Source: Terriglobia bacterium (lineage in GTDB: Bacteria > Acidobacteriota > Terriglobia > Acidiferrales > UBA7541). Taken from it: a DNA stretch of 64,000 bases. This document shows positions 18,632-31,744 of the stretch, piece by piece (within the stretch, counting starts at the first letter, position 1; each line of letters starts with the position of its first letter). Made by a program: the position numbers and the translations under genes. Below the pieces are notes generated by a model. That model saw only the letters and a program-made list of their open reading frames with translations, was not told where the DNA came from and searched no databases. The DNA is taken from NCBI GenBank assembly GCA_041485165.1, contig JBGPJC010000003.1, positions 17 through 64,016 on the forward strand. Direction: 5' to 3'.

Positions 18632-19600
18632 TTACTGCGCGAGGAACAGGCTCTGCGCGAATGGCCATTCCTCGTCCACCCACTGCGCGTCGCAGCGGAA
18701 CCCTGCGCGCTCGCCGAGGACGGCGACCTCCGCGCAGCGGAAGCGATGGCTGCTTTCCGTCCAGATGGTTTCTCCGGCGCGGAATTCCACCCGCAGCCCG
18801 GCATCGCGGACGTATACCCTCTGCTTTTTCTTCGAGGAGAGATGCATTTCAATTCGGCGGCTGCGGCGGTGGTAAAGCGCGACGTGCCGGAACTGAGCGA
18901 TGTCGAAGTCGCCACCCAGCTCGCGGTTGATGCGCGCCAGCAGGTTGAGGTTGAAGGCGGCGGTGACCCCCAGCGAGTCGTCGTAAGCGGCCAGAAGCTG
19001 AGGCTCCGGTTTCTCCAGGTCGGTGCTCAGCAGCAGCGCATCGCCGGGGAGCATGATGGCGCGAAGGTCGCACAGGAATTCCACCATCCTTGGCCGGTCC
19101 AGGTTGCCGATGGTGCTGCCCAGGAACAGCACCAGCAGCGGCGCGCCCTTCGGGCGTCTCTGCGCAACTTCGCACAGCCCTTCCAGGAACGGGCTGGCCA
19201 GTCCGGCGAACTCCACCTCTTCCAGCTCGAAGAGCTCGCGGCGGCAACGCTCGAGCGCCGCCGAGGAAACGTCAATCGGGTAATAGGTGGTCTGTTGGCG
19301 GCGCGAGAGCGCCTCGAGCACCCAGCGCGTCTTCTTCCCGGTGCCGCTGCCCAGCTCGGCGACCACCAGGCGTCCGGGCAACCGCGCCACCATCTCTTCT
19401 GCGTAGCGGCGGAAGAGCCGCTCGTCGGCGCGCGTCAGTCCGTACTCCGGGAGCAGGGTGATGACTTCGAACAGCGCCGTGCCCAGATCGTCATAAAAAT
19501 ATTTCGAGGGCAGCTCTTTCTGGCCGGCTCGCGTCAAACCGGCGCGCACGTCGGCGGCGAATTCTGTGAGGGGCTCGATTGCCTTCGCAGGGTAGGCCAT
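18632..19600 (-). CDS. egtD: L-histidine N(alpha)-methyltransferase (EgtD-like)
   Basis: LPSKYFYDDLGTALFEVITLLPEYGLTR, ELGSGTGKKTR and LFLGSTIGNL are the Methyltransf_33/EgtD signatures. The gene is immediately downstream of egtB. Confidence 0.85.
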   Translation of the reverse strand: MAYPAKAIEPLTEFAADVRAGLTRAGQKELPSKYFYDDLGTALFEVITLLPEYGLTRADERLFRRYAEEMVARLPGRLVVAELGSGTGKKTRWVLEALSRRQQTTYYPIDVSSAALERCRRELFELEEVEFAGLASPFLEGLCEVAQRRPKGAPLLVLFLGSTIGNLDRPRMVEFLCDLRAIMLPGDALLLSTDLEKPEPQLLAAYDDSLGVTAAFNLNLLARINRELGGDFDIAQFRHVALYHRRSRRIEMHLSSKKKQRVYVRDAGLRVEFRAGETIWTESSHRFRCAEVAVLGERAGFRCDAQWVDEEWPFAQSLFLAQ

Positions 19601-19645
19601 CGCTGATCTCCGTGATGACGCAGAGTCTTTGCTCAGTCTTCTTGT

Positions 19646-20968
19646 TCAGCTCGTGACGCAGCGGAACCCCGCGTATGCGTATTGGTAGTGCGCCTGGAAC
19701 CAGTTGCGGAAGGAACGGCGCAGGAAGCAAGCGGCGGTGCGCGGGGATGCGCCCTTCATCACATAGTGCTTGCCGTCAAAAAAGTCCGCGGAGTAGCCCT
19801 TGTAGAACGGGAATGGCTCGAAGCCGGAGAATGGAGCGAACGGAGTGCAAGTCCACTCCCAGCCGTTGCCAAGCAATTCGTCCACGCCGAAGGCGCTCCG
19901 CCCGGCGGGATGCGCGCCCACCGGCGTTGGCGTCCAATGCTTGAAATCAAAGTTTCCCCGGCTGCTGTCGGGAGGCGTGTCGCCCCAGGGATAGAGCCGC
20001 TCGTGCCCTTCGAGCGTGCCAAACGCCGCGCGATGGAACTGCGCTTCGGTGGGAAGCGCCACGCCGCGCCAGCGCGCGTAAGCCGAGGCTTCGCCGTGGC
20101 TCACGTAAACCGGCCACGCCGGCGTCAGGGGCACTTCACCAAACATGGTGCGGTAATGCCACACGCCACTTTTCTCGGTCCAGAAGACGGGGCGGCTGAT
20201 GCCCGCGGCGTTCTTCCACTCCCAACCGGCGTCAGTCCACAGCGAGCGATGGTCGTAACCACCAGCGCGGAGGAATTCGAGGAACTGCGCGTTGCACACT
20301 TTGCCGGCGTCCATGGCGAAGGCGGGGACATCCACCGTGTGCGCGCGGAATTCGTTGTCCCAGCCGAAAGGCGTCTCTTCATTGGGGACCAAGCCCAGTG
20401 TCACCCGTCCCGCGGGGATTTCCACACGCCGCGGCGCTGGAGGAATAGAGTTTGTGTCCGCGTGCACGGGGCCGGAGATTTTTCTCTCCGCTGGCAACTG
20501 GTGCAGCATGTAGGCCAGAGTTTCGGCGTGCATCAACCGGTGTTCGACGGCAACCTGGATGATTTGCTCCACGGGGTAGATTGCAGGCTGCGAGTTGGGC
20601 TCTTCGAGGCACGCATCCACCTCCCGCCGCGCCCGCCCGGCGTATGCCTGGACTGCGGAAAGAGCGGGCCAATCTGCGGGCTTGTCCTGCGGCGTCTTCC
20701 CGTCCACCGGGTCAATGCCGAAAGAGAAAAGGCGGTTCAGGGCTGGGTCTACGGGGTCGCGTCCCAGAGTGTCGCGCACGATCAGGTTGGTGTCGAAGGC
20801 CTCGAGGTGTCCGACATAGAAGAGGATGCGGTGGCGCTCAGGAATCGGCCGGTCGTACAGCGCCTCGGGGCGGACCAGGCGGAACAGTTGGTCCGACACG
20901 GCACGGGCCTCGGAGAGCCGTGCGAGAAGCCTGTCCGATATCCGCTGCCGGCCGGCGGCGGGACACAT
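19646..20968 (-). CDS. egtB: sulfoxide synthase EgtB (DinB_2 + FGE-sulfatase domains)
   Basis: The N-terminal DinB-like region has HRILFYVGHLEAF. The C-terminal FGE-like domain carries GNGWEWT and RGASP-type motifs (GNGWEWTCTPF, MKGASPRT). The first ATG is at 20968, although the ORF opens at TTG 20995. Confidence 0.85.
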   Translation of the reverse strand: MCPAAGRQRISDRLLARLSEARAVSDQLFRLVRPEALYDRPIPERHRILFYVGHLEAFDTNLIVRDTLGRDPVDPALNRLFSFGIDPVDGKTPQDKPADWPALSAVQAYAGRARREVDACLEEPNSQPAIYPVEQIIQVAVEHRLMHAETLAYMLHQLPAERKISGPVHADTNSIPPAPRRVEIPAGRVTLGLVPNEETPFGWDNEFRAHTVDVPAFAMDAGKVCNAQFLEFLRAGGYDHRSLWTDAGWEWKNAAGISRPVFWTEKSGVWHYRTMFGEVPLTPAWPVYVSHGEASAYARWRGVALPTEAQFHRAAFGTLEGHERLYPWGDTPPDSSRGNFDFKHWTPTPVGAHPAGRSAFGVDELLGNGWEWTCTPFAPFSGFEPFPFYKGYSADFFDGKHYVMKGASPRTAACFLRRSFRNWFQAHYQYAYAGFRCVTS

Positions 20969-22062: not shown

Positions 22063-23397
22063 ATGCTCCAACGGCGTGATTTTCTTGGTCTGCTCGGTTC
22101 GGCTGCGGTGTTGCCTGCCGCGCCGATGGCGGAGTGGGAGCGAGGCCCTTCCGCGCCGGAGGCAAATGCCGGCGGCTTGATCGAGCAGATCCTCTGTGCT
22201 CCGCAGCCCGCCATGCCCGATGACGCGCTCTTCGCGCGCGACGCGGAGGCGTACTGGGAGGGGATTCGCAAGCAATTTATTTTCCGGCCTGGATTTCTCT
22301 ATTTGAACAACGGCACGGTGGGTTCCTGCCCGCGCCCGGTCCTGCGCGCCTACATCGAAAGCATCCTGCGCGAAGATCAGCTCGAAAACGACGACACCGA
22401 GAGCTACCCGCTGTGGGGTTACGGCAATTGGGACGAGTACCGCCGGCCAGTGGCGGAATTCCTCGGCGCGCAGCTCACTGAGATTGCCCTGGTCCGCAAC
22501 GCCACTGAGGGAATCAACTACGTGGTGAACGGCCTGGATCTGAAGCCCGGCGACGAAGTGATTTACACCGATGAGGAGCACGGCAGCGGCAAAAGCCCCT
22601 GGCTGTTGAAGCAGAAACGCTACGGCGTGGTGGTGCGGGAAATCACCCTGCCCAAGCCCCCAAAGTCGAAGCAGCAGATCCTGGACCTGTTTGAGGCTGC
22701 GCGGACGCCGCGCACGCGCGTGGTCATGTCCAGCCATATCACCACCATGACCGGTTGCGTGATGCCGGCGCGGGAGATCTGCGCCTGGGCGCGCGCCAAC
22801 AACCTGATCTCCATGATTGACGGCGCGCACGTCATCGGCATGATCCCCATAAACTTGAAAGAGATGGGTTGCGATTTCTACATCACCAGCCCGCACAAAT
22901 GGCTGCTCTCTCCCAAGGGCCTGGGTGTGCTCTTCATCCGCGAAGGCGTGGCCGACCGCCTGTGGGGCACGATCGTCACCGGCGGCTGGGACGACATGCA
23001 GAACCACGCCGCGCGTTTGCAGCAATTCGGCAGCACAAGCGTCTGCCTGCTGGTTGGCCTCCGCGCGGCCATAGACTTCTGGAAGCTGGTGGGCCCGCTG
23101 CGCATCGAGCGGCGCATCCGCGACCTGCACGCCTATGCGAAAGCGCGCCTGGGCGCTCTGCCCGGTGCCGTGGTGCAATCCGCTCCCGGCGAGGAATTCA
23201 CCGCGGGATTGTGCGCCGTGGATTTCCCCGGCTTCGACCGCATGAAGTTCCAGCAGTGGGTCTACCGGGAGCACCGCATCCGCTGCCGCGGCACGTCTGC
23301 CAGCCGCTTCCGCATCAGCACGCATATCTACCACAACCGCGGCGACCTGGACCGCTTTGTGGAGGTTCTGGCGGAGTACCGCAAGCAAAATGCGTAG
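22063..23397 (+). CDS. class-V aminotransferase-fold PLP enzyme (cysteine desulfurase / isopenicillin-N-epimerase-like) with twin-arginine signal
   Basis: The N-terminus MLQRRDFLGLLGSAAVLPAAP is a Tat motif. SPHKWLLSPKG carries the PLP lysine, and the overall pattern is Aminotran_5. Confidence 0.85.
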   Translation: MLQRRDFLGLLGSAAVLPAAPMAEWERGPSAPEANAGGLIEQILCAPQPAMPDDALFARDAEAYWEGIRKQFIFRPGFLYLNNGTVGSCPRPVLRAYIESILREDQLENDDTESYPLWGYGNWDEYRRPVAEFLGAQLTEIALVRNATEGINYVVNGLDLKPGDEVIYTDEEHGSGKSPWLLKQKRYGVVVREITLPKPPKSKQQILDLFEAARTPRTRVVMSSHITTMTGCVMPAREICAWARANNLISMIDGAHVIGMIPINLKEMGCDFYITSPHKWLLSPKGLGVLFIREGVADRLWGTIVTGGWDDMQNHAARLQQFGSTSVCLLVGLRAAIDFWKLVGPLRIERRIRDLHAYAKARLGALPGAVVQSAPGEEFTAGLCAVDFPGFDRMKFQQWVYREHRIRCRGTSASRFRISTHIYHNRGDLDRFVEVLAEYRKQNA

Positions 23398-23417
23398 TCT
23401 TTCGGGAACCCGTTCAG

Positions 23418-23473
23418 AGTTGAAAGTTGAAGGTTGAAGATTCAGAGTTTCCCCCCTCCCCCTCCCCCCCCCC
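23418..23473. repeat. low-complexity junction: three (A/G)GTTGAA heptamers followed by a C-rich tract ending in a C10 run
   Basis: Read directly: AGTTGAA AGTTGAA GGTTGAA GATTCAG..., then CCCCCCTCCCCCTCCCCCCCCCC. Confidence 0.6.
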
Positions 23474-23481
23474 TGTTTTTT

Positions 23482-23660
23482 GTAAGAGTGAGAAACAAAG
23501 GAGTTGCGAGGAGGAGGTGGGGAACGTTATCAAAACACGTGGTTTTAAGTGCTGTAGAATGCACACTTGCGAGGAGCTTGCGTAAGAGTGGCCAACAAAG
23601 GAGTTACGAGTACCCGTCCAGCAGGATGGCGGGTAAGAGTGGAATCGAAAGGACTTAAAG
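23482..23660 (+). repeat. three degenerate ~29-bp direct repeats (GTAAGAGTGnnnAnnnAAAGGAnTTnnnAG)
   Basis: The copies lie at 23482-23510, 23582-23610 and 23633-23660. Spacing is irregular (71 and 22 bp). Confidence 0.6.
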
Positions 23661-23976
23661 CTGGATCGCCCCCGTATCACTCTGATTGCTCTGACGCGTG
23701 GCACTGACAGTAACCCCAAGGTATCTTATCACAGAGAATACCTAAAAGCAAGGGAAAAGGGGAGGAGCCGGATCAGGGTAGAAAGTGAGGAGGGGAGAAG
23801 AGCCTCTCGGGCAGTCACCCAACCTACCAGCCGGCCCCAGCGGTTGCGACTTGGGGTGCGTATTGATACAGTTGGTGGGGCCAACCCGACTGAGTCCACC
23901 TCTTCTACTGCCATTTAGCAATTATTAGCCGAGCTTATTACCTTAGAAATGAAAATCGAACAAAAAGCGAATAACC

Positions 23977-24013
23977 TTGTCATTCTGCACCGCGATGGTG
24001 TAAGGTGGTGCAG
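23977..24013 (+). promoter_or_regulatory. candidate sigma70-type promoter with overlapping inverted-repeat operator for the island operon
   Basis: TTGTCA (23977-82), an 18-nt spacer, then TAAGGT (24001-06). The inverted repeat CTGCACC (23985-91) / GGTGCAG (24007-13) brackets the -10 element. All of this is 17-50 nt upstream of the RHH gene ATG. Confidence 0.3.
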
Positions 24014-24029
24014 TGGACGGAAGGTGTCT

Positions 24030-24230
24030 ATGGCGTCGAATATGAAGAGATTTGGGAAAAAGAGCTCTGCGGGATCACCGCGGGCGTCGGTGACTTTCCC
24101 GCCGGACCTCTATCAAGCCCTTGAAGCGCTCGCGAAGAAGAACAAGGTCTCCGTTGCTTGGGTCGTTCGCGAAGCCGCCGAGAGGTATGTCGCTGACCAA
24201 TGGCCGCTGTTCGGGAAAAAATCGGCATGA
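24030..24230 (+). CDS. ribbon-helix-helix (CopG/Arc-type) DNA-binding protein
   Basis: SVTFPPDLYQALEALAKKNKVSVAWVVREAAERYV follows the RHH beta-strand/helix/helix pattern. GGAAGG lies upstream of ATG 24030. The stop overlaps the methyltransferase ATG (ATGA at 24227-30). Confidence 0.7.
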   Translation: MASNMKRFGKKSSAGSPRASVTFPPDLYQALEALAKKNKVSVAWVVREAAERYVADQWPLFGKKSA

Positions 24231-25162
24231 GAGGAACTTCTCCAGTACTGGCTGCGAAGTCTGAAAGAGCTCATTCGATACGCCCGCAAGCGGATTCCAA
24301 CCGGTCCCCTAACCGAGAGCCTCTACCGTTTCCGCTCAAGGATGCTGTTGTCTCCTGTCAAGATAACATTAGCTTCATGAAGTCCCTCCCCCCCGAGAGC
24401 ATGAAGCTGATCGTGACCTCTCCACCGTACAATCTCGGGAAAGAATACGAAACCAAGCGCTCAATGGATGCTTATCTCGACGCCCAGCGCCACACCATTA
24501 CCGAGGCTGTCCGGCTTCTTCACAACGAAGGTTCGATCTGCTGGCAAATCGGAAACTACGTCGAAGACGGAGAGGTGTTCCCACTCGATATCCTTCTGTA
24601 TCCCTTGTTCAAGGAGGCGCGACTCCAGCTAAGGAATCGCATTATTTGGACCTTTGGCCATGGTTTACATTGCCAGAAGCGGTTTTCTGGACGGTACGAA
24701 ACGATTCTGTGGTTCACCAAGAGCGAGCAATATACTTTCCATCTCGATGAAGTGCGTGTGCCGTCGAAATATCCGAATAAGAAGCATTTCAAAGGTCCTA
24801 ACAAAGGCAAGCTCTCGGGAAATCCTCTGGGCAAAAACCCGTCCGATGTCTGGGAGATTCCGAACGTAAAAGCGAACCACGTGGAGAAGACAGAGCATCC
24901 CTGCCAGTTTCCCGTCGGACTTGTGGAGCGCCTTGTTTTGTCTTTGACGGACGAAGGCGACGCCGTTCTCGATCCATACCTTGGTGTTGGCTCAAGCGCG
25001 ATAGCCGCGCTTAAGAATGGGCGTAAAGCTTATGGATGCGATGATGTCCAAGAATACATAGAGGAGACCTGGGAGCGAATAGGCCAGCTACGTTCTGGCA
25101 AGCTGAGGGTGCGCCCGATGAACAAGCCTGTTTATGAACCGCCGCCGAGGGAATGTGAATGA
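24227..25162 (+). CDS. beta-class (motif IV before motif I) exocyclic-amino DNA methyltransferase, N4-C or N6-A
   Basis: LIVTSPPYNLGKEY is motif IV (SPPY). HPCQFPVGLVERLV and VLDPYLGVGSSAIAA (motif I, FxGxG) lie C-terminal to it. Alternative ATG at 24200. Confidence 0.9.
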   Translation: MRGTSPVLAAKSERAHSIRPQADSNRSPNREPLPFPLKDAVVSCQDNISFMKSLPPESMKLIVTSPPYNLGKEYETKRSMDAYLDAQRHTITEAVRLLHNEGSICWQIGNYVEDGEVFPLDILLYPLFKEARLQLRNRIIWTFGHGLHCQKRFSGRYETILWFTKSEQYTFHLDEVRVPSKYPNKKHFKGPNKGKLSGNPLGKNPSDVWEIPNVKANHVEKTEHPCQFPVGLVERLVLSLTDEGDAVLDPYLGVGSSAIAALKNGRKAYGCDDVQEYIEETWERIGQLRSGKLRVRPMNKPVYEPPPRECE

Positions 25163-25623
25163 ACTTTGTCGAAGGGTATTCTCATCGCCACGGTATGGTT
25201 GAGTGGGAAAAGCGGGAACTCGACGAGTGGATCACGGATGTATTCAATGCCCCGGCAATAGCCCTTGAGGCTCACGCAACCAATGCCATTCGAGATCACG
25301 TTCGCCGTGAGCTTACAAACGAGGGCTGGTCCGATGTAGTCGCAATTGCCCCGAACTTCACGAATGTGACGGTCTTCAGCCAGAAGGATGAACTTGCGAT
25401 ACAGCTGCAAACCGGCAATGTTAGCCGGGTGTTTTATGATCTGATAAAACTTCAGTATTTGTTCAGCCGTAACAAGATCGAAGCTGCTGCTCTTGCTGTG
25501 CCGACCAAGGTGGGCGCGCAACTGCTCGGCAGTAATATCGCGAACTTCGAACGTCTATGCGGGGAACTGCAGCTTTACGACCGGATCGTGACGGTGCCAA
25601 TCTTGGTCATTGCCTTCGAATGA
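25159..25623 (+). CDS. BglII/BamHI-fold restriction endonuclease homologue (short, divergent)
   Basis: LAIQLQTGNVSRVFYDLIKLQYLF...AAALAVPTK...VTVPILVIAFE lines up with the BglII segments LVEVQFSNYPFLLNN...VAIIITK...DVPIRLVGL as I recall them. The ATG overlaps the methyltransferase stop (ATGA at 25159-62). Confidence 0.55.
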   Translation: MNFVEGYSHRHGMVEWEKRELDEWITDVFNAPAIALEAHATNAIRDHVRRELTNEGWSDVVAIAPNFTNVTVFSQKDELAIQLQTGNVSRVFYDLIKLQYLFSRNKIEAAALAVPTKVGAQLLGSNIANFERLCGELQLYDRIVTVPILVIAFE

Positions 25624-25630
25624 GGTTGAG

Positions 25631-26965
25631 ATGGTTTATAAGGTTAAGGTTTCTCCCAAGCACGAACGCGAAGCCCAGATAGCACTCGGATGCAAGAGCC
25701 CGATTGAGATGTCAGCCTTCTACGAGTACCAGAACGCACCGCAACTGCTCCCTGTGATTAGAGTCGCGATAGAGCTTTTGATCTACCGCATAGCGAATGG
25801 ACGCACCCGAACGGCGCAGCTCCGGCATGTCCGATCGCATCAGTTGGCCGTCGATTTCTTCAGCGCCGGCCAAGAGAATCAGGAGAGCCAGCAGGCTCAG
25901 CACGACATTCTCGATCGTTTTTCAAAACAAGGAAACGCATCGATCACTCCGATCGCGACCGTTCTTGGCGAAGGCAAGCAGACGGAGCCCATTCTCGTCA
26001 CTGCTTCTGGTGTGGTCGTCAACGGCAACCGCCGATTGTCGGCAATGCGCGAGCTCTACGCCAGTGGCAAAGCAACTTACAACAGTTTCAGCCACGTCAA
26101 CTGCAGGGTGCTTCCCGCCGCGGTGACCGACAAAGAAATCAAAGAAATCGAAATCCGTCTGCAGATGCAGCCAGAAACTAAGCTTCCATACACATGGGTC
26201 AACGAAGCGCTGACGATTAAGGATCTTATGGCCAATGGTTTCACTAAGGATGAAGTGATGCGCGACATGCGCAAGGAGACCTCTCAAGAAATCGATGCCG
26301 CTTTGCAGGCGCTTGTCCATGCAGAGATTTACATGAAGGACTGGCTGAAGCAGCCTGAGGAATATGATCTTGTCGAGGGCGCGAAGCAACATTTTGGCGA
26401 CATGGCGAGGCTGCTGAAGAACAAGAGCGGAGAAGAACTTGAATTGAGCCGTCGCCTCGGTTTCCTCGTCCAGGACAGCTCGAAAGAAATGGGGGATCGG
26501 GCCTATGCGTTTAATTTCAGTTTCGGCAAGAAATCCGCTGAAGTGGCCGAGGCCCTAGCTGTTCGCCTCGGCGTGGATCTGACGGCCGCAGCCACCGAAA
26601 ACAATCAATCCCCGCAGCGACTCGACATCGACATCGAAGACGAAACCGAGGGCGCAAGTTACCAACCCCTAATTGAATTATTGGATGACGCCAGCCGCCG
26701 GGAAGAAGTGTCCGAAGAACTCATCTCGGTATGCGAGAGCATTCGCTCCGCCGAACAAGATGAAAAGCGGGGGCAGGCGGCACTGAAAGCGGCGAAGGAT
26801 GCAAATACGCGGCTGCTTGAGGCCGATATCGCAACGGCCGACCCAGCGACGTATCCTGGAATCGTCGCCCAGCTCGACAGCGTCATCACGCGTGCGACGA
26901 AGCTTAAGGACGAGGTTGCGAACGCAATCTCGAAGTCGAAATCCGCGGTAACTCCGAAGAACTAA
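25631..26965 (+). CDS. ParB/Srx-superfamily N-terminal domain protein with acidic coiled-coil C-terminal half
   Basis: VIRVAIELLIYRIANGRTRT (the L..y..N.R box) and EPILVTASGVVVNGNRRLSAMREL (the ParB-like G-x-x-R-x-x-A box) are present. The ATG at 25631 is preceded by GAGGTTGAG and is 7 nt after the upstream stop. Confidence 0.65.
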   Translation: MVYKVKVSPKHEREAQIALGCKSPIEMSAFYEYQNAPQLLPVIRVAIELLIYRIANGRTRTAQLRHVRSHQLAVDFFSAGQENQESQQAQHDILDRFSKQGNASITPIATVLGEGKQTEPILVTASGVVVNGNRRLSAMRELYASGKATYNSFSHVNCRVLPAAVTDKEIKEIEIRLQMQPETKLPYTWVNEALTIKDLMANGFTKDEVMRDMRKETSQEIDAALQALVHAEIYMKDWLKQPEEYDLVEGAKQHFGDMARLLKNKSGEELELSRRLGFLVQDSSKEMGDRAYAFNFSFGKKSAEVAEALAVRLGVDLTAAATENNQSPQRLDIDIEDETEGASYQPLIELLDDASRREEVSEELISVCESIRSAEQDEKRGQAALKAAKDANTRLLEADIATADPATYPGIVAQLDSVITRATKLKDEVANAISKSKSAVTPKN

Positions 26966-26982
26966 GTCTATTGGCTCATGAA

Positions 26983-28890
26983 ATGACCGCGCCGCCCGTC
27001 GAGATCGAAATTACCTACAACGCGACCACGCTCCGCGGCGCTTTCCGACTTCAATCCACTGGTGACAATTCGATATGGGAGCGCCTGACCCAACGAGTTC
27101 TCGCTCTTGACAGCGATTACGAATTTGGTAGTGGTGTCCTCGATGCTCCGTGGACGACGGTCCTTTCCATCATCCGCGAGTTTGCTCCCTTGCAGCGAAA
27201 GCAGGGGTTTCATTTTCGTCCCGTGGGCCCCGCAAAGGAAAAGATTGATCAGTTCGTCCGTGAATACAAAGCGGTTAAGGATTCACGCGGGACGCTAACA
27301 GCCACGCTCAGTGACAAAGAAGTTGAGCAGCGGCTAAAGGCTGTGGCTTTTACAAAACGCGACCTCAAGACATTTCAGAACCGAGATCTTACGCACCTTC
27401 TTTCACTGGCCAACGGAGCCAATTTCTCGGTTCCCGGCGCCGGGAAAACTACTGTCACTTTCGCTTTGCACCTGATCACTCAGCGCCCAGGCCAGCATCT
27501 TCTAGTTCTGGCACCGAAAAATGCTTTCATCGCATGGCAAGATGTTGTTCGTGACTGCATTGATTCGAATTCAGAAAACAGCAATGCTGAGCCATTCACC
27601 GTGCTTACTGGCGGGGCAGATACAATCGCTGCACTCCTGGAATCCGGTGCAACCCGCTTCCTTATTACTTACGACCAGCTAATACGGATTCCCACCATAA
27701 TAGCCGCGTACCTTTCGCGGCGTCCCGTTCACCTTGTCCTTGACGAATCACATCGCATGAAGGCAGGTATGGCATCGCAGAGAGGATCCCTGCTCCTCAA
27801 TCTGTCATCGCTTGCCGTCCGTCGCGACATTCTCAGCGGAACGCCAATGCCACAATCCCCCAGCGATCTGCAATCACAACTCGATTTCCTGTGGCCGGGA
27901 GCGGGTTTAGGCTTGAAGATTGCTCAAGGGGCGGCCCCAAGGCAGGTCTTGGGCAACCTTTATGTGAGGACAACCAAGAGCGAGTTGGGCTTGCTCAAGC
28001 CACACCGGCAATTCATCCATGTCGAGATGAACCCTGGACAGCAAGCGCTCTATGCGGTCGTGCGCAACGAAGCCCTGAAGCAGTTGAGTTCGCTGAAATA
28101 TGAAAGCCGCGTTGACGTGTACGGCGCGCGGAGGTCGGTGATGACGTTACTGCAGCTGTCAGTGAACCCCGTCCTGGCCCTGCGTTCCATGGCCGAAACG
28201 CAAGAACTTTCCCTCATAGGTTCCGGAATTGTAGACAAGGTGATTGAGGAAGGGCCTTCCCAAAAAATGCGAGCCGTCGCTTCGCTTGCTCGACAGCTTT
28301 CTCGCGATGGTCACAAGAGCGTCATCTGGACGATATTCACCGGGACCATCCTCGAAATGGAGAAGATGCTGGCCGATCTGAACCCGGTTACGCTGTATGG
28401 CGCAATACCCATTGGTGAAGAAGAAGGCGCAGATACGCGAGAGAACCGTATTCGACGGTTCCATGAGGATCCAGCCTGCGCTGTTATGATCGCAAATCCC
28501 TCCGCGGCCGGCGAGGGAATCAGCCTCCATGCAATCTGTCACAACGCCATTTATCTTGATCGCAGCTACAACACGACCCACTACCTGCAGTCGATTGATC
28601 GAATCCACCGCCTCGGACTTAAACCGGGCATCGAAACGTACATTCATATCTTTCAGACGGTAGCTCCGCAAGCAATCGGAAGTATTGACCGCTCTGTCAA
28701 TCACCGCTTAGCTATCAAACTCAGAAATCTGCAGCAGCTTCTTGACGATCCCGATCTTCATGAAATAGCCCTGGATGAGGAAAATGCCGCCGATCCGACG
28801 AACTACGGTATCGAGCTGGATGACCTCATTGATTTGATCGAGGAGCTTGAGGGGAGAGATCTCAACTTTGACGATAGCGAAGAGGAATAA
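26983..28890 (+). CDS. SNF2-family helicase/translocase
   Basis: Motif I is SVPGAGKTT, motif II is LVLDESHRMK and motif III is ILSGTPMPQS. The C-terminal helicase lobe carries AAGEGISLH and QSIDRIHRLG (motif VI). Alternative TTG start at 26971. Confidence 0.9.
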   Translation: MTAPPVEIEITYNATTLRGAFRLQSTGDNSIWERLTQRVLALDSDYEFGSGVLDAPWTTVLSIIREFAPLQRKQGFHFRPVGPAKEKIDQFVREYKAVKDSRGTLTATLSDKEVEQRLKAVAFTKRDLKTFQNRDLTHLLSLANGANFSVPGAGKTTVTFALHLITQRPGQHLLVLAPKNAFIAWQDVVRDCIDSNSENSNAEPFTVLTGGADTIAALLESGATRFLITYDQLIRIPTIIAAYLSRRPVHLVLDESHRMKAGMASQRGSLLLNLSSLAVRRDILSGTPMPQSPSDLQSQLDFLWPGAGLGLKIAQGAAPRQVLGNLYVRTTKSELGLLKPHRQFIHVEMNPGQQALYAVVRNEALKQLSSLKYESRVDVYGARRSVMTLLQLSVNPVLALRSMAETQELSLIGSGIVDKVIEEGPSQKMRAVASLARQLSRDGHKSVIWTIFTGTILEMEKMLADLNPVTLYGAIPIGEEEGADTRENRIRRFHEDPACAVMIANPSAAGEGISLHAICHNAIYLDRSYNTTHYLQSIDRIHRLGLKPGIETYIHIFQTVAPQAIGSIDRSVNHRLAIKLRNLQQLLDDPDLHEIALDEENAADPTNYGIELDDLIDLIEELEGRDLNFDDSEEE

Positions 28891-28892
28891 CG

Positions 28893-29765
28893 GTGACACT
28901 CCACCGACAAGAATCCCTCTTCACCATGAGCGCTCTGAACGGTCTACTCGCGATTCGGCGTTACGCCATTGCTCATCCTAACGTTTTGCTGCCGGAAGTC
29001 GTAACGGCACTGAAGCACGTATCCGCGGACGAGGCCTATCACAATTACGAGGCGGCTGCCACATTGCACAGTCTCGTAGCGCGGGCTGAAAGGCCTGAGA
29101 CCGATATTCCCTTGTTCTTCCGGGAAGCCATTACGACACTCGTTAGGGAGATCAAACCTTGGTGGGTGCGCCTTTCGACTTCGGGACGTGATCGCGTGAA
29201 GGCCGCCCTCAGCATAAACGAAGTTCAATGCTTCGATGCCGCTGGTCTCTTTGCGCAACCGCCGACAGCCGAGATTCTCACATGGTGGGACGCATTGGCC
29301 CATGGAGTCCGTGCGAACGACAATGCGAAGCTATTAGCGCAGGGCCGTGAAGCGGAGCGGCTCACTATGGACTACGAGACGAGAAGATTATCCGACTTGG
29401 GCATTAGCAATCGTCCGCAGTGGATCTCTTTCGACGACAACGCGGCTGGGTACGACGTGCTGTCGTACGAAAGGGGACCTGTTGAACCCGTTGCTAAACT
29501 GATTGAAGTCAAATCGACCGGCCGTCGGCCACGCGAGATTTTCCTGACCCGGAACGAATGGGAAACCGCGCTGGAACGGTTCCCTAACTACTGTTTTCAT
29601 ATCTGGACACTCCCGGAGATGCAGCTGACCGAACTCACCCCGTCTGACCTTAGCCGGCATGTGCCCGAAAATAACGGAAACGGGGTCTGGCAAGTCGTCC
29701 GCATAACCTTAGAGGACGGGGCGCATGGCCCAATCGCCGGATCGTGCGGCGAGGATGGCGACTGA
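28893..29765 (+). CDS. DUF3883 (NOV C-terminal, PD-(D/E)xK-like) domain protein
   Basis: AGYDVLSYERG...KLIEVKSTGRRPREIFLTRNEWETALERFPNYCFHIW matches the DUF3883 pattern GyD..S....iEVK......f.ls.nE...A....y.ly.v. GTG 28893 is 2 nt after the SNF2 stop. Alternative ATG at 28926. Confidence 0.7.
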   Translation: MTLHRQESLFTMSALNGLLAIRRYAIAHPNVLLPEVVTALKHVSADEAYHNYEAAATLHSLVARAERPETDIPLFFREAITTLVREIKPWWVRLSTSGRDRVKAALSINEVQCFDAAGLFAQPPTAEILTWWDALAHGVRANDNAKLLAQGREAERLTMDYETRRLSDLGISNRPQWISFDDNAAGYDVLSYERGPVEPVAKLIEVKSTGRRPREIFLTRNEWETALERFPNYCFHIWTLPEMQLTELTPSDLSRHVPENNGNGVWQVVRITLEDGAHGPIAGSCGEDGD

Positions 29766-29838
29766 CGAAGGCTAGGTTTCCCGGGTGCTTTTTAAGCAGT
29801 CTTGTGACGATGTCAGCGTCGAGCGAATAACTGCTCAT
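29766..29838 (-). pseudogene. 5' remnant (~24 codons) of a PIN-domain VapC-like toxin gene
   Basis: MSSYSLDADIVTRLLKKHPGN resembles the VapC N-terminus (M..yLLDTNvvs.ll...p). The PIN-like similarity stops where the DUF3883 gene ends at 29765. The ATG overlaps the upstream small gene stop (ATGA at 29835-38). Confidence 0.45.
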
Positions 29839-30053
29839 CCCGTTTCACCGGGGTTGAAAGTGGCCCGGTGTAGCTCCAGGTCGGCCTCGAAATCTTTCCA
29901 CCAAGTCTCACCGCGGTCGTCTGGAGTGGCGAGCCAGGAATCCAGCCACTGAAGCAGTTTTGTGTTTCGTGGTCGCAGGCGCCGCGCAGCTCCACTGGAA
30001 TCGGTCACGAGCGACTTTGATTTCCCTCGGCGCAAAATGGATTGCTTGGGCAT
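29835..30053 (-). CDS. small protein in antitoxin position (putative VapB-like partner)
   Basis: 72 aa, translationally coupled (ATGA) to the PIN remnant. The call rests on position only. I do not recognise a family. Confidence 0.35.
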   Translation of the reverse strand: MPKQSILRRGKSKSLVTDSSGAARRLRPRNTKLLQWLDSWLATPDDRGETWWKDFEADLELHRATFNPGETG

Positions 30054-30345
30054 GAGTTTGGGTTTCCGATCCTTTTCTGTTGCGTATCCGGCAAAACCCT
30101 GCTTGCTTATCCTAGCCTAAAGAGCCGCTGAGGGGAAACATCTGGAGGATGGGCGGAGAGATGAAAGCAGATCCCTCGTCCGCCGGAGCTGACTCGGGAT
30201 GACAGTTCTTGGCGTGGGGGGGAACGGGGAGGGAAAAAGATAACGCGGAGGCACAGAGAACGCAGAGTGACGCAGAGTCTGGAAGAGATGGCCAGGATTT
30301 GGAGGTTGGACGGAGGAGGATGGGAGCTGGAAGTTGCGGGTTTGA

Positions 30346-30483
30346 GGTAGGGGCACGGCGAAGCCGTGCCCATTCGACGGACGACAGGCGATGATCGACG
30401 GACCCTTCGACTCGCTCCGTTCGCTCAGGATTAACATCCTGGCCGGATGCTGACGGTGGGCACGGCTGTGCCGTGCCCCTACC
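30346..30483. repeat. REP-like element: two GGGCACGGC-N3-GCCGTGCCC hairpins arranged as a larger inverted repeat
   Basis: Hairpin 1 is at 30351-30371 and hairpin 2 at 30458-30478. The outer arms are GGTAGGGGCACGGC / GCCGTGCCCCTACC. Confidence 0.6.
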
Positions 30484-30493
30484 AAATCTAGGA

Positions 30494-31744
30494 TTAGATG
30501 ACTCGTGGCTCAGGGATAGGAATGAGGACCTTTGTGCCGCGGTCGCGGAGAAGCTGGAGGTATTCCAGGATCTCGGTGGCGAAGTTCCAGGCCAGCAGGA
30601 AAACATAGTCGGGCGGCTGCTGCGATAGCCGCTCCGGCGAATAGACCGGGATGTGGCTGCCCGGAGTGTACAGGCCGATCTTCAGCGGGCTGCGGTCCAC
30701 GGTAAAGCTCACCAGCGAAGTGTCGATGCCGCAATAGCACAGCAGCGTATTGCCCTTGGCAGGCGCGCCGTAGCCGGCTACGGTCTTTCCCGCGTCTCGC
30801 CAGCTGCGCAGCAAGGTGAGCAGCCGCTCGCGGTTCTGGGCGACACGCGCGGCAAAGGAGCGGTAGGTATCCAGCGTGCCAAACCCCGCCCGCCTCTCCT
30901 GTTCCGCCATTTCCAGGACCTGTGCGCCGTGGCCCTGCGGGCTGGAAGCGCGTCCCCACATGCGCAGCGAGCCGCCGTGGATATCCACCTGGTCCACGCG
31001 CTCGAGCTCGAGGCCAGCGCGTTCGAATAGGCGCATCAGCGGGCGCACCGCGAAGTAGCAGAGATGCTCGTGGTAGATGGTGTCGTACTCGAACGCGGCG
31101 AGCATGGTGGCCAGATAGGGCGCCTCGATGACCACGCGCCCGCCGGGTTTGAGCAGCGCGCCGCAGGCGGAGAGGAATCCCACCGTGTCATCCACGTGTG
31201 CCAGGACGTTGTTGGCCAGAACTGCGGAAGCGGGGCCATGTGTTTGCAGCAGGCGCGCGGCCAGCGGCGCGTCGAAAAATTCGTTGACCGTCTCGATGCC
31301 CGCGGCGCGAGCAATCTCAGCGATGTTTTTCGCCGGCTCGACGCCGAGCGTGCGCACGCCCAGGTCGCGGAAACAGCCCAGCAGGCTGCCGTCGTTCGAG
31401 GCCACCTCGACCACCAGGTCATTCGCGCCGAGGCCGATCGCGCGATTCACCTCTCCGGCCAGCGCAGTGTTGTGACGCACAATGGTGGCGTTTGTTCCCG
31501 TGCGATACAGATAGTTGGAGAACAACACTTTCGGGCTGACCACGTCTACGAGCTGCACCAGCCAGCAATCCGAACAGAAGTAGACCTCCAGAGGAAAACG
31601 CGGCTCCGGTTCGCGGAGCTGCTCGGCGGTAAGGAAAGCATTGGCCAGCGGCACCTGCCCCAGCGAGAGGAACTTGTGCAGGTTGCGCCCGCCGCAAGCC
31701 CGGCAGGTGTCGCGCACGGTCAGGACGCCGGAGGGAAGACTCAT
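30494..31744 (-). CDS. NDP-sugar C-methyltransferase (TylCIII-like; Zn-ribbon + SAM-MT + C-methyltransferase C-terminal domain)
   Basis: CRACGGRNLHKFLSLGQVPLANAF...YFCSDCWLVQL is the putative zinc-binding domain of sugar C-methyltransferases, followed by a class I SAM fold (VVEVASNDG). ATG 31744 overlaps the upstream stop (ATGA). Confidence 0.8.
   Translation of the reverse strand: MSLPSGVLTVRDTCRACGGRNLHKFLSLGQVPLANAFLTAEQLREPEPRFPLEVYFCSDCWLVQLVDVVSPKVLFSNYLYRTGTNATIVRHNTALAGEVNRAIGLGANDLVVEVASNDGSLLGCFRDLGVRTLGVEPAKNIAEIARAAGIETVNEFFDAPLAARLLQTHGPASAVLANNVLAHVDDTVGFLSACGALLKPGGRVVIEAPYLATMLAAFEYDTIYHEHLCYFAVRPLMRLFERAGLELERVDQVDIHGGSLRMWGRASSPQGHGAQVLEMAEQERRAGFGTLDTYRSFAARVAQNRERLLTLLRSWRDAGKTVAGYGAPAKGNTLLCYCGIDTSLVSFTVDRSPLKIGLYTPGSHIPVYSPERLSQQPPDYVFLLAWNFATEILEYLQLLRDRGTKVLIPIPEPRVI

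Follow-up and report, generated by a model that had tools for sequence, protein, structure and literature searches.

What do three consecutive genes, encoding a ParB-like protein, an SNF2-family motor and a protein with a DUF3883 domain, do beside a DNA methyltransferase gene? They lie at positions 25631-29765 of a 64,000-nucleotide stretch of DNA from Terriglobia bacterium (contig JBGPJC010000003.1 of assembly GCA_041485165.1), the whole of which is called the window here. A sequence-only reading of the window took them for a three-gene defence-like module, in which a ParB-like sensor or loader, a motor and an effector nuclease act on DNA left unprotected by the adjacent methyltransferase. 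The answer developed here is that the unit consists of five genes, in which the methyltransferase (methylase) and a small homologue of the restriction endonuclease (REase) BamHI precede the trio. Together with a lineage-specific RHH regulator, the five genes would constitute one nucleoside triphosphate (NTP)-dependent, restriction-modification (R-M)-like defence system with a non-cutting reader of DNA, a reading that is considered somewhat probable. The cassette and the island in which it lies have the following features.

23400-30500, low-GC island carrying the cassette (GC 0.50-0.57 inside versus 0.60-0.68 in both flanks)
23949-24230, + strand, RHH/CopG-like small DNA-binding protein of 93 residues (Pfam RHH_1, E 1.2e-6; RHH_5, E 1.1e-6)
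24227-25162, + strand, beta-class N4/N6 DNA methylase of 311 residues (Pfam N6_N4_Mtase, E 1.3e-48)
25159-25623, + strand, BamHI/BglII/BstYI-like protein of 154 residues (Pfam Endonuc-BglII, E 1.1e-5; BamHI, E 0.042)
25631-26965, + strand, ParB/Srx-fold protein of 444 residues (matches to ParB, Spo0J, KorB and Noc folds; ddrB-ParB below threshold)
26971-28890, + strand, SNF2-family ATPase/translocase of 639 residues with an acidic tail (Pfam SNF2-rel_dom and Helicase_C)
28893-29765, + strand, stand-alone NOV_C/DUF3883 PD-(D/E)xK protein of 290 residues (NOV_C, E 1.1e-12; possible alternative start, ATG at 28926)

Six co-directional open reading frames (ORFs) fill the island (23949-29765). The three ORFs of the trio lie exactly where the sequence-only reading had placed them, and its assignments of their products hold, but its gene set is incomplete: the gene at 25159-25623, between the methylase and ParB-like genes, went unmentioned and encodes a BglII/BamHI-like protein of the same unit. 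The RHH stop codon and the methylase ATG share the sequence ATGA at 24227-24230, and a second ATGA overlap joins the methylase stop to the start of the REase-like gene. The remaining junctions within the five genes are gaps of 3-8 nucleotides, the one between the REase-like and ParB-like genes measuring 8 nucleotides. These overlaps and short gaps make the six-ORF run one tightly coupled operon.

Conservation of the cassette was surveyed from two sides. An alignment of the ParB-like protein was scanned against one genome per GTDB species, giving 176 relatives in 185,579 species genomes; six-frame ORFs of the best 80 loci were searched with the window proteins, and the 74 loci with a complete span were counted. 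A PF01555 methylase is present in 74/74 and stands on the same strand directly upstream in 69/74. The BamHI-like gene was found in 71/74, SNF2 in 74/74 and NOV_C in 73/74, and all five genes occur in the order methylase, REase-like, ParB-like, SNF2, NOV_C in 71/74. The carriers belong to at least 9 phyla and comprise Acidobacteriota, Alpha- and Gammaproteobacteria, Bacillota, Bacteroidota, Verrucomicrobiota, Spirochaetota, Nitrospirota/Nitrospinota and Binatia, the closest genome relatives being Terriglobales and 'Candidatus Angelobacter'. Cultured carriers include Brevundimonas vesicularis NCTC11166, Paracoccus denitrificans DSM 413, Paenibacillus lautus NBRC 15380, Rhodobacter capsulatus SP18 and Bradyrhizobium oligotrophicum S58. 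Of the 80 loci scanned, just the two closest, L006 and L007, both from Acidobacteriota, have the RHH gene; the three copies of the window's own sequence (L001-L003) carry it as well. The RHH protein is a probable operon regulator and a lineage-specific accessory.

In the reverse test, an alignment of the commonest subtype of the BamHI-like protein (called the reader below, after the role proposed for it) was scanned against metagenome contigs. This gave 288 relatives, of which 80 loci, including some from the human gut, were scored with profiles built from the genome loci, only contigs with room for the gene being counted. The ParB-like gene lies downstream in 69/69 contigs, followed by SNF2 in 48/49 and NOV_C in 44/45, and a PF01555 methylase lies upstream in 64/65. 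Of the two exceptions, one is truncated by an integrase gene and the other has a C5 methylase in place of the PF01555 enzyme. The reader was never found alone with a methylase in these contigs: the ParB-like gene always follows it, and the whole back end (ParB-like, SNF2 and NOV_C) does so in 44/45; by this co-occurrence, the small BamHI-like family is a signature part of the cassette, not a free-standing restriction enzyme. Copies in decay are also found. In L087:3122-4572, a phage-integrase gene cuts the cassette just after the start of the ParB-like gene, and in L004:8619-13739, the methylase, SNF2 and NOV_C genes are fragmented.

The three-gene module is accordingly real only in part. The trio is conserved, with homologous ParB-like and SNF2 proteins and a following NOV_C gene in both cassette variants (A, that of the window, and B, described below), but the unit is five genes. 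That the trio is complete by itself does not stand, because the REase-like gene is an obligate fourth partner (71/74 ParB-seeded loci, 69/69 reader-seeded contigs). The link to a methylase, also proposed before, is confirmed in all 74 complete genome loci, but the methylase is a member of the operon rather than a neighbouring system that the trio exploits. The notion that the trio exploits a neighbouring but unrelated methylase was set aside, since the enzyme is translationally coupled and universally present.

Why should a REase homologue of this kind be taken for a reader? Its Endonuc-BglII Pfam score is 25.7 bits against a cutoff of 26, and in the PDB a profile built from 19 members of the family finds BstYI (E 3.3e-8), BamHI (E 0.002) and OkrAI (E 0.009). 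BstYI recognises RGATCY, BamHI and OkrAI recognise GGATCC, and BglII recognises AGATCT. A phmmer search with the 154-residue protein against 1.84 billion representatives gave 295 family representatives, nearly all of about 150 residues. The catalytic residues are D94, E111 and E113 in BamHI, D84, E93 and Q95 in BglII, and D119, E128 and Q130 in BstYI, consistent with the alignments obtained here. The segments M-E111-F-E113-T-G-N116 of BamHI and I-E128-V-Q130-F-G of BstYI align with (C/Q)82-x-Q84-T-G-N87 of the reader, and in the window protein E111/E113 of BamHI and E128/Q130 of BstYI are aligned with Q82/Q84. Among 137 representatives, position 82 (equivalent to E111/E128) is C in 92 and Q in 25 and is never D or E, while position 84 (equivalent to E113/Q130) is Q in 137/137. 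The beta-2 positions 71-74, aligned with BstYI D119 and the OkrAI Asp, are T/S, I/V, T/N/S/F and S/A/G, with an acidic residue at 71 in 6/137.

Since the family has no acidic residue at the E111 equivalent and always has Gln at the E113 equivalent, it is read, from sequence alignment, as an inactive site and methylation reader, presumably of an unmethylated palindromic site, which is the weakest step of the model. N87 (equivalent to BamHI N116), R90, D94, K97, N126, R132 and E136 are fully or almost fully conserved (at least 132/137), a pattern that fits a conserved DNA-binding and dimerising scaffold. The sequence-only reading had assigned the sensor role to the ParB-like protein; the REase-like protein is a better candidate for it, being homologous to sequence-specific, methylation-sensitive enzymes while having lost their catalytic carboxylates.

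A second form of the cassette, variant B, was recognised from annotated partial matches on plasmids. It consists of four genes, which encode a 'hypothetical protein' of about 285 residues, a ParB-like protein of about 437 residues, a 'DEAD/DEAH box helicase' of about 630 residues and a 'DUF3883 domain-containing protein'. Its ParB-like protein, named 'ParB/RepB/Spo0J family partition protein' by the Prokaryotic Genome Annotation Pipeline (PGAP), shares 30% identity with that of variant A (E 2e-24) and has the box LINGNRR; the SNF2 proteins share 32% identity (E 4e-76), and the NOV_C proteins have the Pfam domain alone in common. The front gene (285 residues), whose family comprises 411 clusters, is matched by PDLC03501, a REase_II model of PADLOC, with E 2.8e-19. 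A bona fide member of the PDLC03501 family (E 2e-137) is encoded in Rhizobium 4 kb upstream of the front gene, beside a C5 methylase and Vsr, and is 29% identical to the front-gene product (E 9e-23). The bona fide REase has a classical D...A-I-E-L-K-G motif, whereas 119 reader-like copies have A-x-I-Q-K-G, with Ile at the position of the catalytic Glu. Two unrelated REase families have thus each given rise to a degenerate paralogue that precedes a shared ParB-like/SNF2/NOV_C back end in the neighbourhood of a methylase.

In Streptomyces, Roseibium and a third long contig, the variant-B genes lie about 1-2 kb from a C5 methylase, with Vsr, GIY-YIG or DUF4928 genes. On pRL11 of Rhizobium ruizarguesonis (L168:1-4781), a full C5 methylase/REase pair lies by variant B together with an OLD/AriA/mad3-like ATPase and Vsr, and the REase belongs to the same family as the degenerate front gene. 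Beyond L168, in the variant-B loci L171-L173, the nearby C5 methylase has as partners candidate nucleases of differing fold (GIY-YIG, DUF4928) or Vsr. The variant-B reader may follow the specificity of the methylase rather than that of its partner nuclease.

The methylase of the window matches the PADLOC MTase_II model (E 8.5e-78); the match begins upstream of the start called by the Joint Genome Institute (JGI) at 24377, and 24200 and 24377 are alternative starts. Among solved structures, M.RsrI comes closest to it (E 3e-33). All 77 of 77 family members have SPPY as motif IV. As a rule, S in the motif SPP(Y/F) goes with N4-cytosine methylation and D or N in its place with N6-adenine methylation, and enzymes of the M.BamHI type methylate cytosine at N4. 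The SPPY motif, read by this rule, points to N4-cytosine, and the cassette methylase probably makes N4-methylcytosine for self-protection. The methylase module is exchangeable: in L099:274-1896 (metagenome contig MTLD01002208.1), a 540-residue C5 cytosine methylase (PF00145) replaces the PF01555 enzyme, with the same stop/start overlap, before a BamHI-like reader and the back end. In three Bacillota loci, from Paenibacillus lautus (L014), a Bacillota metagenome-assembled genome (L029) and Bacillus infantis (L062), the methylase is a longer PF01555 protein (about 490 residues) encoded upstream on the opposite strand, the reader and the back end being unchanged.

The ParB boxes quoted in the sequence-only reading, LIYRIANGRTRT and VVNGNRRLSAMREL, are present in the 444-residue protein, and the fold assigned from them is upheld by structure comparison. 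An AlphaFold model built from an alignment of 20 homologues (predicted local distance difference test (pLDDT) 83; predicted template modelling score (pTM) 0.73) gave Foldseek matches in the PDB of which the top 21 are all ParB, Spo0J, KorB, Noc or pNOB8 ParB, with probabilities of 0.89-1.0 and alignments of about 160-315 columns that cover the N-domain and the helix-turn-helix (HTH) region. In this protein, an N-domain bearing the NGNRR box is followed by a helical middle that resembles an HTH, then by an acidic linker and, at the C-terminus, a hairpin of helices; in the model, the linker (322-340) is disordered and is followed by long helices at 354-397 and 405-437. G132, N133, R134, R135, R140, E174 and Q178 are invariant among the homologues, and the box VVNGNRRL is retained in 76/82. 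The protein is predicted to be an NTP-dependent adaptor or clamp. ParB/Srx proteins also act as NTP-regulated DNases in plasmid conflict (PMC5512222), and an NTP-gated nickase, as reported for other ParB/Srx proteins of conflict systems, would be an alternative role.

The motor and the nuclease bear out the domains that the sequence-only reading assigned to them. The SNF2 protein (Pfam SNF2-rel_dom, E 5e-10; Helicase_C, E 1e-5) has the intact motifs PGAGKTT and LDESHRMK, and among 74 homologues, Walker A, DExH and motif VI are retained as PGAGKTT in 70/74, LDE(S/A)HRMK in 66/74 and QSIDRIHRLG in 71/74, respectively. No other back-end protein is as well conserved; the identity across phyla is 58-60%. 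Its N-terminal part of about 125 residues forms a confident alpha/beta fold (AlphaFold2 model of residues 1-161, pLDDT 85-94 over 10-100), for which Foldseek found nothing significant in the PDB, the best match being a hypothetical protein with E 0.045. The NOV_C protein scores 48.3 bits against a cutoff of 22.1 and carries D188...E205-V-K207, the D...(E)VK arrangement of PD-(D/E)xK nucleases; D188, E205, V206 and K207 are at least 95% conserved and are invariant in alignment A6. Profile searches of the PDB with its unassigned N-terminal region of about 150 residues gave nothing useful. The active enzyme YenY4I has DUF3883 as its catalytic domain (PMC6765204), and the NOV_C protein is predicted to be the effector nuclease.

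These parts can be arranged into a working cycle as follows. The methylase would mark the host copies of a short palindromic site, probably of the NGATCN type by homology of the reader, with N4-methylcytosine as suggested by SPPY. On incoming DNA, where the sites are unmethylated, a dimer of the reader, lacking the D/E/E(Q) metal-binding residues, would bind them and make no cut. An NTP-binding dimer of the ParB-fold protein, with its DNA-binding middle and coiled-coil tail, might then be recruited to, or locked at, the reader-bound site to serve as a platform, a step modelled on the parS/ParB and KorA/KorB analogy alone. From this platform, the SNF2 ATPase would translocate the DNA, and the NOV_C PD-(D/E)xK protein would cut it. 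A wider proposal, put forward at slightly less than an even chance, is that such cassettes form an unrecognised class of NTP-dependent R-M systems, in which a dead paralogue of a Type II REase reads both sequence and methylation and licenses a ParB-family NTP switch or clamp, which deploys SNF2 and a DUF3883 nuclease in trans. The dead readers taken up by the back end would in this case come from two or more unrelated REase families, and the methylases that it has acquired would be of at least three kinds (operon PF01555, longer opposite-strand PF01555 and C5).

Several observations weigh against the defence system with a non-cutting reader. Neither the window nor the island shows a depletion of GATC-type hexamers, and no site can be proposed from them. 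For the 444-residue protein there is no significant ParB match in Pfam, the lone hit being ddrB-ParB (E 0.0045, 17.6 bits versus a cutoff of 27.6), nor any ParB-like match in PADLOC, in NCBIfam, in sequence and profile searches of the PDB or by hhalign against one canonical ParB. A C5 methylase was found within about 1-5 kb in just 4/7 variant-B loci examined. In L038, L043 and L044, the methylase, ParB-like and SNF2 genes are present while a BamHI-like reader was undetected (NOV_C is retained in L038 and L043, and none is found on the short contig of L044), and the back end may either do without a reader or use a substitute that escaped recognition. L043 has a GmrSD_N gene directly downstream. 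As for the inactivity of the reader, Type II enzymes of the size of PvuII are active, and the small size of the reader proves nothing; D94, K97 and E136 are conserved and are left unexplained by the alignment; and active sites can migrate in the PD-(D/E)xK superfamily (PMC3424549).

Migration of the active site, the unexplained invariant residues and the existence of a back end lacking the BamHI-like reader (variant B and the three variant-A loci above) also favour another explanation, in which two systems stand side by side: a Type IIP pair, whose small BamHI-family endonuclease is active through a non-canonical site, and a separate ParB-like/SNF2/NOV_C module, which travels along or processes the cut ends. 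A small regulator upstream of a methylase and a REase-like protein is moreover the classical Type II layout. However, the coupling crosses the supposed boundary between the two systems (the 8-nucleotide gap), a stand-alone methylase/REase-like pair was seen in none of the 69 reader-seeded contigs, in all of which the ParB-like gene follows directly, and the acidic residues of BamHI, BglII and BstYI are missing from the whole reader family. An unrelated REase family also loses the glutamate of its ExK motif exactly when it stands before the same back end. Two adjoining systems are judged unlikely on this evidence.

The genomic context bears on what the cassette serves. Among the nearest large ORFs flanking 44 genome loci, 138 ORFs fall into 122 Pfam families, none of which occurs in more than 4 ORFs. 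Recurrent flank families include integrase, type IV secretion system (T4SS) coupling protein, relaxase, transposase, ArdA, Bro-N, AbiEii-like ATPase, HipA, GmrSD, KwaB, MADS, NsnA and AriA, and individual loci lie in regions resembling integrative and conjugative elements (ICEs) or beside GmrSD or Schlafen-like ATPases. No ParA gene lies beside the window cassette, and the 25 commonest flank Pfam families include none of the ParA type. The pattern is that of an accessory or defence module spread by horizontal transfer rather than of a partition locus, and the earlier expectation of variable rather than housekeeping surroundings is borne out by flanks rich in mobile-element and defence genes.

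Such surroundings also suit a cassette that serves the mobile element itself: ICEs and plasmids would use it for addiction or exclusion, through post-segregational killing upon loss of methylation or through the destruction of incoming competitors, as for Osa-like ParB nucleases. Several loci are embedded in regions that resemble ICEs or plasmids, and genes for relaxase, T4SS coupling protein, resolvase and ArdA are found near them, variant B is carried by conjugative or mobilizable plasmids, and the NTP-regulated ParB/Srx DNases of plasmid conflict mentioned above provide a precedent. On the other hand, many loci, including that of the window, have no mobile-element genes adjoining the cassette, and a tblastn search of 72,556 plasmid records with the ParB-like protein gave one full-length copy and five partial matches, while no full-length copy was found among 50,697 phage records. 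Service to the element overlaps mechanistically with defence, and as a separate explanation it appears quite improbable. A housekeeping or regulatory role for the ParB protein and the remodeller, in chromosome or plasmid partition, epigenetic gene control or DNA repair, finds some echo in the partition name given by PGAP to the variant-B protein and in the transcriptional regulators of the KorB type (PDB 8qa9 is among the fold matches), but is scarcely credible against the lack of a recurrent ParA partner in the flank sample, the patchy spread noted above, the unconserved neighbourhoods, the existence of decayed copies and the intact, conserved nuclease and methylase as obligatory partners.

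The window sequence recurs identically in metagenomes from JGI and Logan, on contigs that reach 107 kb, and the table of flanking genes and Pfam families comes from such an identical contig. The island is flanked by metabolic genes, with Aminotran_5 upstream and sugar methyltransferase and glycosyltransferase genes downstream. Just upstream of the island, on the - strand (18632-20968), a Methyltransf_33 gene stands beside an FGE-sulfatase/DinB_2 gene, a pair that by its domains looks like the EgtD/EgtB ergothioneine pair. No tRNA, integrase, clear target-site repeat or convincing flanking direct repeat was found in the window as a border of the island, and neither tRNA genes nor Rfam families were found in the whole 64 kb. 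Consensus scans, uninformative in both cases, gave no sigma-70-like promoter match in 23300-30600 (4.1 expected) and terminator-like sites at or below the shuffled expectation. At the non-coding left edge of the island, a C-rich run, ccccctccccctcccccccccc (about 23452-23475), is followed by three copies, at 23482, 23582 and 23633, of a direct repeat of 25-29 nucleotides, GTAAGAGTG..AAAGGAGTT (region 23452-23657). These repeats could be binding sites of a regulator or the remnant of an insertion event. The non-coding right edge, of about 730 nucleotides, contains at 30346-30483 a 27-nucleotide inverted-repeat pair of 93% complementarity, the arms of which, GGGCACGGC..GCCGTGCCC, are themselves palindromic.

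If the defence system with a non-cutting reader is real, it would be a widespread addition to R-M, with 176 matches in the GTDB species genomes, 288 from a single metagenome scan and, for each of the two variants, over 400 protein clusters; its carriers include bacteria of soil, the sea and the human gut. It would specify its target in a new way, a Type II endonuclease being recycled as a reader while cutting is handed to a motor-driven nuclease. A ParB-fold NTP switch would stand between site recognition and DNA translocation, a role so far undemonstrated for ParB folds, and the BamHI-like reader of about 150 residues would offer a natural, compact, methylation-sensitive DNA-binding module. 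In current annotation, these operons appear as an ordinary Type II R-M pair followed by a 'hypothetical protein', a 'DEAD/DEAH box helicase' and a 'DUF3883 protein', and neither PADLOC 2.0 nor NCBIfam naming picks them up.

How does the cassette compare with known systems? The six proteins gave no system-level match in PADLOC 2.0 or NCBIfam release 20, where their matches are limited to generic MTase_II and REase_II models, to partial likeness of the SNF2 C-lobe to ZorD, DpdE and DrmD, and to PDC-S36, PD-T4-1 and TmtA for NOV_C. The cassette is not described in the searchable literature, including work on Hma, ARMADA II, BREX-related, Dnd, polyvalent-protein, HEPN, domain-centric and Menshen systems, subscription-only journals and REBASE being outside this scope. 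With the Type IIP enzymes BamHI, BglII, BstYI and OkrAI, the reader shares sequence homology, the (E/Q)xQ-TGN strand-turn with the N116 equivalent and a position directly after a beta-class methylase. It differs from them in being about 50-70 residues shorter, in the replacement of the catalytic acids and in being always followed by the ParB-like, SNF2 and NOV_C genes. KorB-KorA and ParB-parS clamps, which work with cytidine triphosphate, have the N-domain and HTH fold in common with the ParB-like protein, and a small site-specific dimer encoded beside a ParB-family protein recalls KorA, which locks the KorB clamp. No sequence-level similarity to these clamps was detected, however, and the cassette has no ParA.

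In DISARM, ARMADA, Dpd and Zorya-I, an SNF2-type ATPase (DrmD, ArmA, DpdE and ZorD, respectively) also takes part in modification-linked or nuclease-based defence, and Dpd has a ParB-like ATPase, DpdB. The likeness of the cassette to them is confined to the C-lobe of SNF2 and is partial (E 1e-6 to 5e-14 in PADLOC and far below the cutoffs in NCBIfam), and DrmA/B (DUF1998), DrmC, DpdA (TGT), ZorA/B, ArmC/D and PglZ were not found within 10 kb of the cassette. The sequence-only reading had already reported that TGT, Dnd/Ssp, PglZ and DUF1998 genes are missing here, which the gene and Pfam table of the identical contig confirms for the same distance. In the Hma system, HmaA, an SNF2 protein fused to DUF3883, alone protects against T4, and it is encoded with a DUF1156 methylase, HmaB, and a DUF499 ATPase, HmaC (PMC11232893). 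The cassette likewise has a methylase beside its SNF2 motor and DUF3883 nuclease, and HmaA shows that such a pairing of motor and nuclease can restrict. In the cassette, however, motor and nuclease are separate polypeptides, the window SNF2 protein has no PADLOC match to HmaA, the methylase is of PF01555 rather than DUF1156, DUF499 is absent, and a reader and a ParB-fold protein are added.

Menshen offers a predicted parallel for an inactive REase-fold sensor paired with a ParB-superfamily NTPase and a DNA-binding domain. Its NsnA has predicted sensor domains, including an inactive REase, fused to ParB-DUF262 and a DNA-binding domain (ParBDB), and acts with an OLD-type ABC ATPase, NsnB, and with NsnC (PMC12065111). 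In the cassette, the corresponding parts are separate genes, the ParB-like protein has no PADLOC match to NsnA, an ABC ATPase/NsnB and NsnC are absent, and the system is linked to a methylase and uses SNF2 and NOV_C as the effector. The logic of Type I, Type ISP and Type III R-M systems is the one proposed here as well: a methylase marks self, unmodified sites are found by a reader, and a superfamily 2 motor translocates before a PD-(D/E)xK nuclease cuts. In the cassette, by contrast, the reader is derived from a Type II enzyme rather than from HsdS, a target recognition domain or Mod, the motor is of the SNF2 type, the nuclease is supplied in trans, and the ParB-fold protein has no counterpart. 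Since the defining components of Type I/ISP/III, Hma and Menshen systems are absent, the cassette is a member of none of them, and it apparently represents a widespread, undescribed kind of restriction/defence system.

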